Below, one piece after another: positions 36,602 through 41,141 of a DNA stretch of 46,144 nucleotides (the stretch's first letter is position 1; every line of letters starts with the position of its first letter). The notes beneath the pieces were generated by a model. That model worked only from the letters and a program-made list of their open reading frames with translations, had not been told where the DNA came from and searched no databases. Made by a program: the position numbers and the translations under genes. The stretch comes from a virus. Taxonomy: Duplodnaviria; Heunggongvirae; Uroviricota; Caudoviricetes. The stretch lies in the IMG/VR virus record IMGVR_UViG_2718218453_000007. The stretch is one strand, 5' to 3'.

Positions 36602-36834
36602 GCTGCACCTCCGAGATGCTTCATGTTTTTTCCGGAGCGAAAGGCTATAAGCGGCATACTGACGCGGTAATTACGGCCCAGCGGTTCACAAATCACCTTC
36701 TGACATTCACGGTCAACCAGGCTGACACGTAGAACATGCCCTGCTGGCGTGGTGTACCACTGCCCAACTGTGGGTGTTGATATTTTTTTACGCTGAAATA
36801 AACGGTAAATGTTGAGGAGCAACGGATTAAGCAT
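36598..36834 (-). CDS. Small hypothetical protein
   Basis: 78-aa ORF overlapping both neighbours by a few nt (operon-like); no family recognised. Confidence 0.35.
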   Translation of the reverse strand: MLNPLLLNIYRLFQRKKISTPTVGQWYTTPAGHVLRVSLVDRECQKVICEPLGRNYRVSMPLIAFRSGKNMKHLGGAA

Positions 36835-37663
36835 GACGATGCCCTCCGCTGATATTCAGGAGACGGTGAATATGAAAATTAGCCTTATCCGCCAGACGAA
36901 TACGTTCAGCTTGCAAGTTAAGAAGGGTTTCTACCAGAACCTGATGTGCCTGCGGATCCGAAAGAGTTACCTTGCGCAGAGCACGTAGTGCAGTTGTTAC
37001 ATAACTGAGTTTATGTAAGTCTTCATCATTCAGACGAGTGAGGGCTGGGACAGTAGCCATGATGGCAGCCTCCTTGATCGGTGAAATACTTCCACCACCG
37101 GAAACGCCAATTTCGCTGGTGGTGAACTGAACGGGGTTGGCGTAACCGGTGATCAAGGAAACCGGCGCATCTTTCGATGCCCCCGCCCAGCCCACCATAA
37201 CTTTGATGTGAGCAAATGCGGACGATAAAAAAGACGCTGGCGCGTCATATATCGCCTTGATCAATTCCAGGACGCCAATCCCGGCACCCGCTTTATAAGG
37301 TGCCTGAACAGTGTAACGTCCCGGAATGGCAGAATCAATGTGCTGGTGGTCCTTCACACTCAACAAAATCACGCTTGAATTTCCACAAAGGACTAAAGCA
37401 CTCATGCGGGTAGTCTTTGCGAAGATAGATAACGCGCTGTGTTTCTGGCTCCCAACGAATAACATGAACATAAAGTCCTCTTCCGTCACGAAACCAGCGG
37501 TTAAGTTCCTGCACAACTCGCCCCCCACAGTCAGGTAAAGTTCTCTGTGGTTACTTACAGCCAGGAGATTTGGTAATCTGCATTCATGCCGTAACAACAG
37601 GTGTTCAGCGACGCTGACCACCAGCTGTTGCGACAAACGGTTATTTGCCGTTAAACTGTTCAT
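36827..37663 (-). CDS. Hypothetical early protein (278 aa)
   Basis: ORF in the early-right operon between the CII-like and O-like genes; no family recognised. Confidence 0.5.
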   Translation of the reverse strand: MNSLTANNRLSQQLVVSVAEHLLLRHECRLPNLLAVSNHRELYLTVGGELCRNLTAGFVTEEDFMFMLFVGSQKHSALSIFAKTTRMSALVLCGNSSVILLSVKDHQHIDSAIPGRYTVQAPYKAGAGIGVLELIKAIYDAPASFLSSAFAHIKVMVGWAGASKDAPVSLITGYANPVQFTTSEIGVSGGGSISPIKEAAIMATVPALTRLNDEDLHKLSYVTTALRALRKVTLSDPQAHQVLVETLLNLQAERIRLADKANFHIHRLLNISGGHRHA

Positions 37664-38223
37664 GCGTTAGTTTCTCCACAGACACAAAACGCCACGACGC
37701 CCGGAGCTGCACACTCGCGGGCGTCACTCTTTTCTGGAGCGCAAAAGATTTTGTAGACCAGTGCTGCATGCTCCTGGAGCTTCGAAATTGACAGATACAA
37801 CTCATCATTAATTGCTGTCTGCTCGTGTGGCTCCACTACCCCATCTTCGATTGCCGAACGAATCTGCTTTGAGTAACTCCCGATCTGTTCGATGACTTCC
37901 AGCAGGCGCTGGTTTATATCGGCGTTCTCTACTTCCTCAATTTCAGGAAGCGATACAAACACCCCACCAGCAGACTGTGCGACAGCATCCGCAATGTAGT
38001 GAGTGCCAGCCGCGCGCTGTAAAATCATTGCCCATCCCAGCGGGAAAATCTGATCGCCATCTGCACGAAGGCGGTTGAATAAAGCGTTCTCTGTTACATC
38101 TAGCCACTCAGCAGCTTCAGCGTACCCCCCCGGCAACGCCGCGATAGTTTTTCTGACAGCTTTCACGTACCACTCAGGCTGTTTTTCTACTTTCCAGTGA
38201 TGCTTACCCACGGTTAGCCTCAT
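37660..38223 (-). CDS. CII-like / YdaT-like early regulator
   Basis: 187-aa ORF immediately downstream of the Cro-like gene; resembles the phage CII (CP76) / YdaT family by position and HTH-like segment AEAAEWLDVTENALFNRL. Confidence 0.4.
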   Translation of the reverse strand: MRLTVGKHHWKVEKQPEWYVKAVRKTIAALPGGYAEAAEWLDVTENALFNRLRADGDQIFPLGWAMILQRAAGTHYIADAVAQSAGGVFVSLPEIEEVENADINQRLLEVIEQIGSYSKQIRSAIEDGVVEPHEQTAINDELYLSISKLQEHAALVYKIFCAPEKSDARECAAPGVVAFCVCGETNA

Positions 38224-38254
38224 CGTTCTGTGGTTAAAAATTGAAGGTGTTCTG

Positions 38255-38455
38255 TTAATCTTTCGGATAGATATCCGGTCTTAAGTCAGATTTCGTAATT
38301 GCACCTGACGTGCATTGCTCAAGTTTTTTAGCCAGCACAAAACTGGCTTTTTTATAACCATTGAAAACCAGCCGTAAATAGCCTGGTGTTGAGCCAACTT
38401 TTCCGGCCAACTCGCCCTGCTGTTCTTTGGTTAAAGAGTCCCAATACGCTTTCAT
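38255..38455 (-). CDS. Cro-like HTH repressor (YdaS family)
   Basis: 66-aa ORF MKAYWDSLTKEQQGELAGKVGSTPGYLRLVFNGYKKASFVLAKKLEQCTSGAITKSDLRPDIYPKD; GGAGG Shine-Dalgarno 11 nt upstream; the longer track ORF overlaps the divergent repressor gene. Confidence 0.7.
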   Translation of the reverse strand: MKAYWDSLTKEQQGELAGKVGSTPGYLRLVFNGYKKASFVLAKKLEQCTSGAITKSDLRPDIYPKD

Positions 38456-38545
38456 ACAATATGTACCTCCGATATACATATTACATGATTGAGATGAACC
38501 TTCAAGATACTTGTACCCTATCGGTACAAAGGTTTTAATTTCTTT
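38456..38545. promoter_or_regulatory. Immunity operator/promoter region (OR-like) between divergent Cro-like and repressor genes
   Basis: Palindromes ATGTA-N9-TACAT (38461-38479) and TTGTACC-ctatc-GGTACAA (38511-38529); minus-strand promoter TTGAAG-16 nt-TAATAT (38478-38505); repressor ATG at 38546 has no obvious Shine-Dalgarno (possible leaderless mRNA as for lambda cI). Confidence 0.55.
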
Positions 38546-39220
38546 ATGAAAACAGTCCATGACATCCGGCGGTCTAACGCCAGAAAACTGAGAGATGGTG
38601 TTGGCGGGAATTCTTCCTTTGCCACCATGATTGATCGCGAGCCAACCCAGACCAGCAGGTTTATGGGAGATGGTGCTACTAAAAATATCGGTGACAGCAT
38701 GGCACGGCACATCGAAAAATGTTTCGACCTGCCTGTCGGATGGCTTGATCAAGAACACCAGACAACAAACATCACAAAAAAACCTGATGTTTCAATTACT
38801 AACAAACAAATAACGTTAGTCCCTGTCATATCATGGGTACAGGCCGGAGCATGGAAAGAAGTTGGCTATTCTGAGGTTGATTTGAGCACAGCAGAAACTT
38901 ATCCCTGCCCTGTACCCTGTGGCGAAATGACTTATATCTTGCGGGTGATTGGTGATTCAATGATTGATGAGTACCGCCCGGGAGACATGATTTTTGTAGA
39001 TCCTGAAGTCCCTGCCTGCCACGGTGACGACGTTATTGCATTGATGCACGATTCAGGCGAAACCACCTTCAAGCGGTTGATAGAAGATGGAACACAGCGT
39101 TATCTCAAAGCATTAAACCCAAACTGGCCTGAGCCTTACATTAAGATTAACGGTAATTGCTCTATAATTGGTACAGTGATTTTCTCGGGAAAACCAAGAA
39201 GATACACAATAAAGGCCTAA
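38546..39220 (+). CDS. CI-like prophage repressor (HTH + S24 LexA-like peptidase domain)
   Basis: C-terminal ...ILRVIGDSMIDEYRPGDMIFVDPE...ALMHDSGETTFKRL... with the Ser (GDSM) / Lys (FKRL) dyad arrangement of S24 autopeptidases. Confidence 0.85.
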   Translation: MKTVHDIRRSNARKLRDGVGGNSSFATMIDREPTQTSRFMGDGATKNIGDSMARHIEKCFDLPVGWLDQEHQTTNITKKPDVSITNKQITLVPVISWVQAGAWKEVGYSEVDLSTAETYPCPVPCGEMTYILRVIGDSMIDEYRPGDMIFVDPEVPACHGDDVIALMHDSGETTFKRLIEDGTQRYLKALNPNWPEPYIKINGNCSIIGTVIFSGKPRRYTIKA

Positions 39221-39232
39221 TCAATATTTATG

Positions 39233-39257
39233 AACCTGCTTCGGCAGGTTTTTTTAT
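39233..39257 (+). terminator. Intrinsic terminator after repressor gene
   Basis: AACCTGC-ttcg-GCAGGTT hairpin followed by T7. Confidence 0.7.
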
Positions 39258-39259
39258 GC

Positions 39260-39292
39260 TTGACAATGTACCCATGAGATACATAATGTATC
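39260..39292 (+). promoter_or_regulatory. pL-like early promoter with overlapping palindromic operator
   Basis: TTGACA (39260-39265), 16-nt spacer, CATAAT (39282-39287); 15-bp perfect palindrome GATACATAATGTATC (39278-39292) over the -10 element, sharing the ATGTA/TACAT half-site with the OR palindromes. Confidence 0.55.
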
Positions 39293-39738
39293 TAAAAGAA
39301 ACATAACACAGGCAAGATTAAAACAAAATTTGGTTGTAACACGGCGTATGGCACATGCGTCGTTAGCGGTCTGGTGACGTTAAAGGGGACAATCCACTCC
39401 TTGCTCGAGCAAACAAACCAGGTAGCCGGAATGTGCAAGTCAATGATGATGCTGATAAGACGCCTAACCAGCGTGGCGATTCGGTTTGACGCCTGGGAAG
39501 AGACCAGGGTGCAACGATGAGGGCATTTATGGAACCGCGACAAAGTGTGGTGCCGTAACTGGCTAAGTGCTCTCAGCGTTGTGGTAATCCGCGAAATGGC
39601 GCGGCGGTAAGTATGGCGGGGTTACTCTTTCCCCGTTGAGGACACCGGATTGTCAGGTTGACCATACGCCTGAGTGACAACCCCACCACAACAGCCACTG
39701 CTTTGGCGGTACCAGTTTGTACACTTGCTTCCGGCTGG

Positions 39739-39753
39739 TACCGCTCTTTTTAC
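39739..39753 (+). promoter_or_regulatory. boxA-like element (possible nutL component) in the early-left leader
   Basis: CGCTCTTTTTACAA resembles the boxA consensus (rrn TGCTCTTTAACAA; lambda CGCTCTTA) and lies in the long leader between pL-like promoter and the first early gene. Confidence 0.3.
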
Positions 39754-39888
39754 AAAACAGAGAAGAGCATCACCGGACGACGGGCTCATAACCCAATCCA
39801 TCCGGGCGGCTGCCACCGCAGGTGTTCTTCTCTGTTTTGTGGAGAAACCAACCGACCTTGCAGGGTCGATATGATGAGGAGCAGCAAA

Positions 39889-40251
39889 ATGGCTAGCGAA
39901 CGCAGTACTGATGTACAGGCATTTATCGGGGAGCTGGACGGCGGCGTATTTGAAACCAAAATCGGCGCAGTTCTCAGTGAAGTCGCTTCCGGTGTGATGA
40001 ACACGAAAACCAAAGGTAAGGTCTCACTCAACCTGGAAATCGAACCGTTTGATGAGAGCCGTGTGAAAATCAAACATAAACTCTCATATGTCCGCCCGAC
40101 TAACCGCGGGAAAATTTCCGAAGAAGACACCACCGAAACGCCGATGTATGTCAATCGCGGTGGTCGCCTGACTATTCTGCAGGAAGACCAGGGACAATTA
40201 CTGACTCTTGCCGGTGAACCTGACGGAAAACTCCGCGCAGCAGGTCATTAA
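39889..40251 (+). CDS. YfdP-like early protein (120 aa)
   Basis: ATG at 39889 preceded by GAGGA Shine-Dalgarno; same length and position as CPS-53 YfdP upstream of YfdQ; the longer track ORF (39658) extends into the leader. Confidence 0.5.
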   Translation: MASERSTDVQAFIGELDGGVFETKIGAVLSEVASGVMNTKTKGKVSLNLEIEPFDESRVKIKHKLSYVRPTNRGKISEEDTTETPMYVNRGGRLTILQEDQGQLLTLAGEPDGKLRAAGH

Positions 40252-40316
40252 TATCGTTCTTAATTAACTGATTATTTATCTCATCACTGAATATCTTTAT
40301 ATAGTGAGGACTTATT

Positions 40317-41141
40317 ATGTCTCAGAACTTAGACGCAACCGCAATTAATCAAATCCATGCCCTTATTTCTTCTCAGGGTGTTAATGAAATTATCAGTAAG
40401 ATTGGTGCCGATGCTGTGGCATTACCTGAGAATTTCCGCATTCATGATCTGGAAAAATTTAATTTAAATCGCTTCCGTTTCCGTGGCGCGCTTTCCACTG
40501 CCAGCATCGATGACTTTACCCGTTATTCTAAAGATCTTGCAGATGAAGGCACCCGCTGCTTTATCGATGCCGATAATATGCGAGCCGTCAGTGTGCTTAA
40601 CCTGGGCACTATTGATGAACCAGGTCACGCAGATAACACCGCCACTCTCAAACTGAAAAAGACAGCACCGTTCTCTGCTCTGTTGTCTGTTAATGGCGAG
40701 CGTAACTCCCAGAAATCACTGGCAGAATGGATTGAAGACTGGGCCGACTACCTTGTGGGCTTTGATGCTAATGGTGACACCATTCAGGCAACAAAAGCGG
40801 CTGCGGCGGTCCGTAAAATCACGATTGAAGCAAACCAGACCGCTGATTTTGAAGATAATGACTTCAGCGGCAAACGCTCCCTGATGGAGTCTGTCGAAGC
40901 GAAGACCAAAGACATTATGCCAGTGGCATTTGAATTTAAATGCGTTCCGTTTGAAGGCCTGAAAGAACGTCCATTTAAATTACGCCTCAGCATTATCACT
41001 GGCGATCGTCCTGTACTGGTTCTGCGCATTATTCAGCTGGAAGCGGTGCAGGAAGAAATGGCTAACGAATTTCGTGATCTGCTTGTTGAGAAATTCAAAG
41101 ACAGCAAAGTAGAAACCTTTATTGGTACTTTCACCGCCTGA
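40317..41141 (+). CDS. yfdQ: YfdQ-like protein (DUF2303 family)
   Basis: 274-aa ORF; length and sequence character recalled as CPS-53 YfdQ family; followed by an HD-domain gene as in CPS-53. Confidence 0.6.

Follow-up and report, generated by a model that had tools for sequence, protein, structure and literature searches.

The immunity type represented by this locus is a known one, with earlier annotation in both the e14 prophage of E. coli K-12 and Shigella phage SfV. Earlier descriptions are said to include work on SfV by Allison and colleagues in 2002, on e14 by Mehta in 2004 and on RNA-immunity in SfV by Roberts in 2007. The GenBank record of SfV (U82619) carries a 'putative operator region', which maps to positions 38461-38529 of the window (the whole 46,144-nucleotide stretch of viral DNA analysed here), that is, to the segment from OR1 to OR3 in Table 1. 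Genes of e14 have been found to be stress- or SOS-responsive (PMC10602906, PMC8249747, PMC6206680), and differential RNA-seq in E. coli K-12 placed the e14 gene ymfK among five leaderless mRNAs (PMC4681348). Phages of the SfV type have been described, in the SfIV paper, as lacking both N and CII (PMC3851460).

Compared with these systems, the region 38456-39292 and its flanking genes very probably constitute a bistable immunity switch of the lambda type that belongs to the e14/SfV class. Its DNA is 96.5-99.7% identical to that of SfV (96.5%), cdtI, Ayreon and Stx2c phages; it was found in 1,323 of 5,426 complete E. coli genomes, and the two genes are annotated as ymfK and ymfT. A three-way alignment of the window, K-12 e14 and SfV gave a mean column identity of 98%. 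The two relatives share with the window the gene pair (ymfK/ymfT in e14, cI/cro in SfV), all five predicted operator dyads, the terminator and pL, with near-identity of repressor, cro and operator DNA, and the N-terminal domain of the repressor is 100% identical to that of SfV. They differ from it by point differences only; in the control regions most of these fall in dyad spacers or at permitted Y/R positions of the half-sites, and two lie between OR3 and the cI ATG. Homology to SfV and e14 ends just past OL2, at approximately 39305-39317. The pL leader beyond this point, with its structured RNA, is shared with the cdtI, Ayreon, 2H10 and Stx2c phages, whereas that of SfV and e14 differs.

Table 1. 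Features of the switch region and the adjoining leader, in window coordinates.
Feature	Position	Strand	Description
Cro-like gene	38255-38455	-	66 aa; ymfT of e14, cro of SfV; YdaS-family HTH
OR1	38461-38479		ATGTACC-TCCGA-TATACAT; matrix score 17.6, window rank 3
pR (predicted promoter)	38478-38505	-	-35 TTGAAG (reverse complement of 38500-38505), 16-bp spacer, -10 TAATAT (reverse complement of 38478-38483)
OR2 (weak)	38494-38512		ATGAACC-TTCAA-GATACTT; two dyad mismatches; matrix score 15.7, rank 4
OR3	38511-38529		TTGTACC-CTATC-GGTACAA; perfect dyad; matrix score 18.8
Putative pRM	38511-38546	+	-35 TTGTAC (38511-38516), 17-bp spacer, -10 TTTAAT (38534-38539)
CI-like repressor gene	38546-39220	+	224 aa; ymfK of e14, cI of SfV
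Intrinsic terminator of cI	39232-39258	+	Stem 39232-39251, followed by T-run
pL-like promoter	39260-39287	+	TTGACA (39260-39265), 16-bp spacer, CATAAT (39282-39287); 11/12 match
OL1	39266-39284		ATGTACC-CATGA-GATACAT; perfect dyad, fills pL spacer; matrix score 20.6, best in window
15-bp palindrome GATACATAATGTATC	39278-39292		7-nt arms around central A
OL2	39286-39304		ATGTATC-TAAAA-GAAACAT; one mismatch; matrix score 13.7, rank 5
Structured leader RNA	39336-39512	+	~170 nt (nhmmer span)

The initial annotation had placed divergent Cro-like and CI-like genes across a 90-bp region, and both genes were recovered with a spacing of exactly 90 bp (38456-38545). The C-terminal domain of the repressor is a Peptidase_S24 domain (Pfam PF00717, E 2e-26) that matches structures of the lambda CI C-terminal domain (E 1e-9), and it is the only part of the protein that aligns with lambda CI. 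A cleavage site at Ala100-Gly101 and the Ser/Lys peptidase motifs are present, and VQAG, GDSM and TFKRL could be aligned to lambda. The N-terminal helix-turn-helix carries the recognition segment T-Q-T-S-R, and T-Q-x-S-R is invariant in all four aligned repressors that are accompanied by these dyads (window, EPP-1, Pseudomonas and Vibrio). The Cro-like protein, named ymfT in RefSeq, matched Pfam YdaS_toxin with an E value of 1.5e-5, short of the curated cutoff. Downstream of cro lies a gene of the CII family (Pfam family CP76), contrary to the published statement that such phages are without CII (PMC3851460), while neither the open reading frames nor Pfam revealed an N-like protein downstream of pL, and no antitermination of the N/nut or put type was recognised. 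The S24 repressor, the YdaS-family Cro-like helix-turn-helix and the CII-family gene together bear out the proposed lambdoid CI/Cro switch.

The operator unit predicted from sequence comparison is a 19-bp dyad, ATGTAYC-N5-GRTACAT (7-5-7), and not the 15-bp palindrome of the initial annotation. Five such dyads are present, three between cro and cI and two at the leftward promoter, in regions each shorter than 70 bp. The earlier parse had found the correct half-site, and its claim that this half-site is common to the rightward and leftward control regions is upheld by the dyad matches, the weight matrix and the relatives; the dyad unit itself had been misparsed, and the third, weaker site over the pR -35 (OR2) had been missed. 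Both palindromes that it reported in the 90-bp region do exist, one with 14-nt arms (38452-38465/38475-38488, 86% complementarity) and one with 7-nt arms (38511-38517/38523-38529, 100%). The window-wide search for ATGTAYC that it suggested returned 9 matches against 8.5 expected, four of the nine within the two short control regions; the 7-mer alone is thus not enriched, and only the dyad and its clustering are significant. When approximately 46,000 window positions were scored with a weight matrix trained only on Edwardsiella (EPP-1) and Pseudomonas phage sites, the five dyads took the top five scores, with 0.37 expected at that threshold. Furthermore, 32 distinct sequences from many genera (N-terminal domain identity 55-99%) have the same three-site OR arrangement ahead of the repressor gene, with conserved half-sites and free spacers.

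At the rightward end, OR1 takes in the final 2 bp of the pR -10 together with the predicted start of pR (~38471) and the Shine-Dalgarno sequence of cro (GGAGG, the reverse complement of 38466-38470), and its position is unchanged in the 32 distinct relative sequences. The promoter that had been proposed for the Cro-like gene, TTGAAG-16-TAATAT, is present on the minus strand and would presumably be used as such. It matches the consensus at 8 of 12 positions, which is below the threshold of the generic promoter scan, so that the scan did not list it; outside the operators, its TTG, -11A and -7T rank among the best-conserved positions of the same 32 relatives. OR3 covers the -35 and spacer of the putative pRM, and on a 0-9 information scale over the 32 sequences its half-sites score 7-9 and its near-random spacer 1-2. 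The scan also flagged OR3 as terminator-like; this was dismissed as an artefact, since the operator is palindromic and a T-rich -10 comes after it.

The centre of OR2 coincides with the pR -35 and lies 43 bp upstream of the cI start, and whether the site belongs to the operator at all is the point on which an alternative fares best. OR might be bipartite, consisting of OR1 and OR3 only, with the conservation at OR2 belonging to the pR -35 region. It is indeed the weakest OR site, with two core mismatches and a poorly conserved right half that overlaps OR3 by 2-3 bp, and its spacer holds the pR -35 TTG, which would be conserved in any case. Its left half (ATGAACC or ATGTACC), however, is conserved from Escherichia to Halomonas, although promoter spacers, such as that of pR in which it lies, do not normally show conservation; its information scores (0-9 scale) are 4-8, compared with 0-5 (mostly 0-3) for the adjoining linker. 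In addition, the externally trained matrix ranks OR2 fourth of ~46,000 positions, and its centre at -43 from the cI start is the position that OR2 of lambda occupies relative to pRM. We therefore regard a two-site OR as unlikely and favour three sites.

The putative pRM would start transcription at the A of the cI ATG (38546), yielding a leaderless mRNA. Its A-A-T at -9 to -7 is -10-like and conserved among the relatives; the -11 position is not A, which would make it a weak promoter. The repressor ATG had been noted to have no Shine-Dalgarno sequence, and this holds more widely, with a Shine-Dalgarno-like 4-mer preceding the ATG in only 2 of the 32 relatives and absent from the other 30. The further proposal of a leaderless cI transcript, as from lambda pRM, is probably correct, given the leaderless ymfK of the near-identical e14 copy (PMC4681348), the missing Shine-Dalgarno sequence and the conserved A-A-T.

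At the leftward end, the near-consensus promoter reported immediately after the repressor terminator was found as described (Table 1). The terminator is kept in enterobacterial relatives, which show the same order of terminator, TTGACA directly after it, OL1, 1 bp and OL2. OL1 is conserved with a variable spacer. OL2 covers the pL start site together with the end of the -10, and has a strong, conserved left half and a right half that is weak, or deleted in some relatives. The 15-bp palindrome GATACATAATGTATC is also present as reported; it is very probably not a recognition unit, since it consists of the OL1 right half and the OL2 left half with a single base between them, and marks only the junction of two abutting left operators. 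The opposite reading, that GATACATAATGTATC is itself the left operator and binds one dimer on everted half-sites, with the N5 dyads incidental, can appeal to its perfect 7-nt arms, to its overlap with the pL -10 and to a palindrome of the same form, GGTACATAATGTACC, that is perfect in several relatives. Nevertheless, nothing comparable to the palindrome exists at OR, while the N5 dyad is present at all five positions; the palindrome is also imperfect in e14, SfV, EPP-1 and the relatives L008, L016, L025 and L026, with no compensating change to restore symmetry. Adjacent dyads that end in consensus half-sites yield such a palindrome automatically, and inverted and everted arrangements could not be read alike by one protein. 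We consider this reading highly improbable and retain the 19-bp dyad as the unit at both ends.

A separate question is which protein reads the dyads. If they were read only by the Cro-like YdaS-family protein (the YmfT homologue), the S24 repressor would recognise something else. Cro homologues adjoin the repressor in nearly all dyad-carrying loci, so that the phylogenetic profile is equally compatible with Cro and with CI and cannot tell the two apart. Two Morganella loci (L033 and L034), however, keep dyads and repressor with no match to Cro, the recognition segment tracks the operator type (T-Q-x-S-R with TGTAC dyads, SQLTQ with the different operators of H-19B), and no other repeated motif that the repressor could use was found in the 90-bp region. 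To our knowledge, the operators of all characterised lambdoid switches are common to both proteins, which likewise counts against a site set reserved for Cro. A role for Cro alone is accordingly given very little credence, and by analogy with lambda both CI and Cro may read the dyads. The weakest alternative, that the motifs cluster by chance or through promoter composition with no dedicated operator system, has the unenriched 7-mer in its favour and is refuted by five dyads in two short regions against 0.37 expected and by position-specific conservation with free spacers across many genera.

With the dyads as operators, a working model of the switch can be outlined. The CI-like repressor (YmfK homologue) would probably bind the 19-bp dyads as dimers, as their conservation suggests. 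It would block pL through OL1 in the promoter spacer and OL2 on the start site, and pR through the weak OR2 on the -35 and through OR1, which extends from the edge of the -10 across the start site to the ribosome-binding site of cro. Lambda CI activates pRM from OR2 at about the same distance from the cI start; positive autoregulation from OR2, 43 bp upstream of the presumed leaderless start, is therefore plausible here. The overlap of OR3 with the pRM -35 and spacer might provide negative autoregulation at high repressor concentration; alternatively, the Cro-like protein could shut off cI from this site. Induction would follow DNA damage through RecA-stimulated self-cleavage at Ala100-Gly101.

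The sequence features, the homologies and the conserved layout are observed; which protein occupies which site, in what order and with what cooperativity, and whether OR2 serves for activation, is inferred, and several observations speak against the model. The matrix ranks OR3 above OR1 and OR2; taken literally, OR3 would be the strongest site at OR and pRM would be repressed early, unlike the order of occupancy in lambda. Lambda-style cooperative pairs do not usually have the spacing seen for OR2 and OR3, whose centres are only 16-17 bp apart (~1.6 helical turns). Finally, the proposed pRM -10 (TTTAAT) is without the usual A at -11, and OL2 has a weak right half that some relatives no longer possess.

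The resemblance to lambda is thus one of architecture. Both systems have divergent cI and cro genes, a tripartite OR, a CI with an S24 self-cleaving C-terminal domain, a leaderless cI mRNA (probably so in the window), one site centred ~42-43 bp upstream of the cI start and a leftward promoter under the same operators, the last suggested for the window by the OL dyads. The half-site and its geometry differ. Lambda operators are 17-bp sites, and the combination of such sites with the lambda CI recognition helix that marks imm-lambda was not found in the window, which has ATGTAYC dyads in a 7-5-7 arrangement. Lambda has three OL sites and the window two; OR1 of lambda lies between -35 and -10, whereas that of the window covers the start of pR and the ribosome-binding site of cro; and OR2 and OR3 of the window abut, unlike those of lambda. 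Also unlike lambda, Cro is of the YdaS family and CII of the CP76 family, no rex genes, N or nut were recognised in the window, and OL lies only ~0.8 kb from OR. The expectation of an immunity specificity other than lambda's is therefore supported by the dyads and by an alignment to lambda CI that is confined to the C-terminal domain.

Outside the immunity group, the closest named lambdoid repressor is CI of H-19B and Stx1 phages, with the same general architecture and 41% identity in the N-terminal domain. Its recognition segment, SQLTQ in place of TQTSR, and its operators, of the TTTATC...GATAAA type, both differ, which indicates a different immunity specificity. Among solved structures, only that of Rep from Salmonella phage SPC32H (PDB 5D50) showed detectable similarity to the N-terminal DNA-binding domain, and this is remote (E 7e-4, residues 1-75). 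Rep is inactivated by an antirepressor, according to the PDB entry and the title of its paper, whereas the window repressor has an S24 self-cleavage domain.

A side observation, outside the operator system, concerns a structured RNA in the pL leader. It comprises five helices, with compensatory double changes in 11 of 29 pairs and near-invariant unpaired junctions; 97.5% of the alignment cells are paired, against 30-40% in slid controls. Its thermodynamic stability is not exceptional (z = -0.3), so that the case rests on covariation. The RNA is conserved in three settings: several lambdoid phages whose repressors differ have it in their pL operons, P1/P7-type phage-plasmids (593 plasmid records) in the leader of the ban operon, and phiV10-type podophages beside a tRNA. 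No Rfam 15 match was obtained at E<=1 over 39250-40350, the only matches at gathering score in the whole window being C4 and isrK, and the RNA could not be identified as a tRNA or tmRNA. An HK022 put-like antiterminator was considered for the pL leader and rejected, since the leader does not resemble the pL region of HK022 in sequence; a search for a further copy on the R side, as is the case for nut and put, found none, each genome carrying one copy. Tentatively, the RNA, which would be the first element transcribed from pL, could be a phage regulatory RNA of a new class that targets early transcripts, for instance as a protein-independent antiterminator or a processing element in N-less phages. 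If so, the left arm of the switch would differ mechanistically from that of lambda.

As a locus, the switch adds little to an immunity type that is already very common in enterobacteria and that about a quarter of complete E. coli genomes carry. In the literature searched, no footprint, EMSA, ChIP or SELEX data were found for YmfK, SfV CI or close relatives, and no comparable operator map for repressors of this type was found in the accessible literature. What the present analysis contributes is such a map, established by comparison, in which five 7-5-7 dyads are placed relative to the promoters of YmfK/SfV-CI-type switches. It supplies targets for footprinting and can help to predict which of the Stx2c, Cdt-I and serotype-converting phages are heteroimmune and to interpret the induction of e14 in K-12.

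The switch is another copy of an immunity type that is already known and annotated. Its DNA is 99.7% identical to that of Stx2c phages, 98.7% to cdtI, 98.3% to Ayreon and 96.5% to SfV, and an alignment of the window with K-12 e14 and SfV has a mean column identity of 98%. RefSeq E. coli annotation names the two genes ymfK and ymfT, which in the e14 cryptic prophage form the repressor/cro pair, and the ‘putative operator region’ of the SfV GenBank record maps by coordinate to 38461-38529; it is this identity, naming and annotation that make the switch a further copy. The region is present in 1,323 of 5,426 complete E. coli genomes. The initial annotation had proposed an immunity specificity different from that of lambda, and this interpretation holds overall, the specificity being of the e14/SfV type, although the operator unit had to be re-parsed.

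The described layout was also borne out. The ORF listing places exactly 90 bp between the divergent Cro-like and CI-like genes, a repeat search recovered both palindromes within this gap, and the TTGAAG-16-TAATAT predicted promoter of cro (pR) was found on the minus strand. The repressor terminator and the TTGACA-16-CATAAT promoter behind it (pL; 11/12 match) were returned by a mechanical scan. A second promoter-like site, TTAAGA-16-TATAAT (10/12), inside the repressor gene at its 3′ end and ∼65 nt before the terminator, probably matches by chance. A Peptidase_S24 domain (E 2e-26) was identified in the repressor, whose C-terminal domain is homologous to that of lambda CI (E 1e-9) and has kept the VQ-Ala-Gly cleavage site as well as the serine of G-D-S-M and the lysine of TFKRL. 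The match of the Cro-like protein to the YdaS HTH family is weak. On every point testable by sequence, the switch belongs to the lambdoid CI/Cro class. As the gene adjoining cro is of the CP76 (phage 186-type) CII family (E 8.5e-15), the statement that CII is absent from SfV-type phages, made in the SfIV comparative paper (PMC3851460), looks outdated.

Features of the immunity region and of the e14-type leader in relatives (window positions unless a relative is named)
Feature	Position	Strand	Sequence or basis
C4 antisense RNA	37115-37202	minus	Rfam, 82 bits
isrK	37227-37303	minus	Rfam, 64 bits
CII-like gene	37660-38223	minus	
Cro-like gene, 66 aa	38255-38455	minus	ORF listing and reading of 38200-39600
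OR1	38461-79		19-mer dyad, ATGTACC-TCCGA-TATACAT
OR2	38494-512		19-mer dyad, ATGAACC-TTCAA-GATACTT
OR3	38511-29		19-mer dyad, TTGTACC-CTATC-GGTACAA
Repressor gene (CI-like), 224 aa	38546-39220	plus	ORF listing and reading of 38200-39600
Promoter-like site	39141-39168	plus	
Repressor terminator	39232-39251 plus T-run		mechanical scan
pL	39260-39287		mechanical scan
OL1	39266-84		19-mer dyad, ATGTACC-CATGA-GATACAT
15-bp palindrome	39278-39292		GATACATAATGTATC
OL2	39286-304		19-mer dyad, ATGTATC-TAAAA-GAAACAT
Leader element	39336-39512	plus	nhmmer profile
e14-type leader element	L041 (K-12 e14), ∼2640-2700	minus	
e14-type leader element	L008, L009, L012-L016, L018, L020, L022, just after pL		

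The proposed half-site ATGTAYC is not enriched by itself in the window (nine occurrences, 8.5 expected), with four of the nine in the two control regions. The 17-bp pattern TGTAYC-N5-GRTACA, allowing up to two mismatches, has eight matches across the 46 kb. Five lie at 38462, 38495 and 38512 (OR, between the cro and cI genes) and at 39267 and 39287 (OL, at pL). The 15-bp palindrome does exist, but not as an operator unit: an independent repeat search paired the two OL 19-mers as inverted copies separated by a single base, and the palindrome is therefore the junction of the OL1 right half, that base and the OL2 left half. Some relatives have it in perfect form; in e14, SfV, EPP-1, L008, L016, L025 and L026 its symmetry is broken, with no compensating changes to restore it. 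We thus reject it as a selected unit and regard it as a by-product. No binding experiment on the repressor or operators was found in the literature searched. Nearly every locus with the repressor also has a Cro, hence CI and Cro are not separable as readers of the dyads.

Diverged relatives were found by tblastn with the repressor N-terminal domain. Edwardsiella phage EPP-1 (62% identity) has three OR dyads and two abutting OL dyads within a TTGACA promoter, as in the window, and the three OR dyads recur in a Pseudomonas phage (58% identity). A half-site weight matrix trained exclusively on these external sites ranks the five proposed sites as the top five of the window (20.6, 18.8, 17.6, 15.7 and 13.7; next 12.0), with 0.37 expected at the same threshold in shuffled sequence. 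Scanning one genome per species yielded 31 more loci, from Escherichia, Pantoea, Klebsiella, Serratia, Proteus and Morganella to Salinicola, Halomonas, Pseudomonas and Vibrio. In the 32 distinct upstream sequences compared, the start of OR3 precedes the repressor ATG by 35-39 nt, OR3 combines nearly invariant half-sites with a nearly random 5-bp spacer, the OR2 left half is conserved despite its position in the pR spacer, and the cro Shine-Dalgarno lies within the OR1 spacer. On the left side, enterobacterial relatives keep the order terminator, TTGACA, perfect OL1, one base, ATGTACC and a weak right half; the OL2 right half of the window is weak. All four aligned dyad-bearing repressors (window, EPP-1, Pseudomonas and Vibrio) share the recognition segment T-Q-x-S-R, and the H-19B repressor (41% identity) differs both in this segment and in operator type. 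Downstream of the repressor of Pseudomonas phage vB_Pae_CF60a (L005, ∼2330-2400) there are no 7-5-7 dyads and instead two copies of another palindrome, CTGTATATACAG, indicating that leftward control is different in the Pseudomonas/Halomonas branch. In EPP-1 (L003, 1435-1500), the deposited repressor CDS begins 66 nt before the conserved ATG and reads through OR2 and OR3, likely a start-codon misannotation.

A mosaic breakpoint lies directly after OL2, at ∼39305-39317. The immunity module is common up to there in SfV, SfIV, e14 and PhiR29/49, which then diverge; cdtI, Ayreon, 2H10 and Stx2c phages continue past OL2 with the leader of the window. The stretch 39300-39870 is a patchwork, with 39578-39700 matching PPompW/Evi-type phages and 39704-39870 matching SfV again. 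The e14-type pL leader has its own conserved ∼60-nt element, GCAGGACGCCCACGAAGTAGCC-hairpin-GATGATTCG, whose stem changes in a compensatory manner between genera (CCCGG/CCGGG, CCTGG/CCAGG, CCGGT/ACCGG) and which is possibly a second small RNA motif in pL leaders. In the pR operon, C4 and isrK lie downstream of the CII-like gene, inside a 278-aa ORF (36827-37663) called ‘immunity region’ in the SfV and Ayreon records. Roberts et al. are said to have described in 2007, to judge by their title, termination-mediated immunity in SfV, an RNA-based second immunity system, and the C4/isrK region is probably that system. The ORF annotation may be spurious.

The leader element of the window spans roughly 170 nt, and the nhmmer profile found two further copies in relatives L020 and L017. 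RNAalifold on 11 sequences gave five helices with double compensatory changes in 11 of 29 pairs; pairing holds in 97.5% of cells, compared with 30-40% in slid controls, and the covariation was reached by 0 of 500 shuffles. Unpaired junctions are near-invariant (e.g., GAAUGUGCAA at 39429-38), indels between helices are not multiples of three, and conserved G-U pairs assign the RNA to the plus strand. The element, annotated in some records as a hypothetical protein, also occurs unannotated in the ban-operon leader of P1/P7/SJ46 after tRNA-Ile, in phiV10/SPN1S-type phages adjoining a tRNA, after a different repressor gene in phiSTEC1575-Stx2k, in pL operons of other lambdoid prophages (L017, L020, L044) and in 593 plasmid records, to judge by the search summary mostly P1-like phage-plasmids. 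It occurs once per genome, with no second copy, and gave no Rfam match at E ≤ 1, no tRNA-like call, no similarity to the HK022 pL region and no literal match in the literature text searched. On this comparative evidence it is a structured RNA, and the sole part of the locus that looks undescribed.

The dyads overlap the promoters. On the right, OR1 runs over the final two bases of the pR -10 and takes in both the predicted start (about 38471) and the ribosome-binding site of cro, and the centre of OR2 falls on the pR -35. At pL, OL1 occupies the spacer, with OL2 lying over the start site and the last part of the -10. Outside the operators, conservation in the family logo is highest at the pR TTG, -11A and -7T. 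The suggestion of a leaderless repressor mRNA gained experimental backing from the e14 sister copy, with ymfK among only five leaderless E. coli mRNAs in K-12 start mapping (Romero et al., 2014; PMC4681348); given the near-identity of the two in alignment, the cI mRNA of the window is probably leaderless too. An SD-like motif precedes cI in just 2 of 32 relatives, and the logo keeps A-A-T at -9 to -7, counted from the A of the start codon. A putative cI promoter, pRM (-35 TTGTAC, 17-bp spacer, -10 TTTAAT without an A at -11), would start on that A, placing OR3 at -26, within the pRM core, and OR2 at -43, the position of lambda OR2 relative to pRM.

Repressor on OL1/OL2 and OR1/OR2 would then silence both early promoters and at OR2 may activate cI, OR3 would provide autorepression or Cro-mediated shut-off, and RecA-stimulated cleavage at Ala100-Gly101 would lead to phage induction. 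Weak points of this logic include the OR3 matrix score, which exceeds those of OR1 and OR2, the OR2-OR3 centre spacing of just 16-17 bp, the pRM -10 with no A at -11, the weak OL2 right half and the near-constant pairing of Cro with the repressor. As far as sequence allows inference, the switch would work like that of lambda. It differs from lambda in having operator dyads of 7-5-7 form, two sites at OL, an OR1 that covers the start site together with the ribosome-binding site, an OR2 that abuts OR3, a YdaS-type Cro and a CP76-type CII, and in that no N or nut was recognised. The e14 literature fits SOS or stress control: YmfK appears among SOS-sensitive repressors (PMC8249747), the SOS-inducible sfiC is located in the ymfN-ymfK region (PMC6206680), and activity of the e14 ‘YmfT iModulon’ is reported under oxidative stress (PMC10602906).
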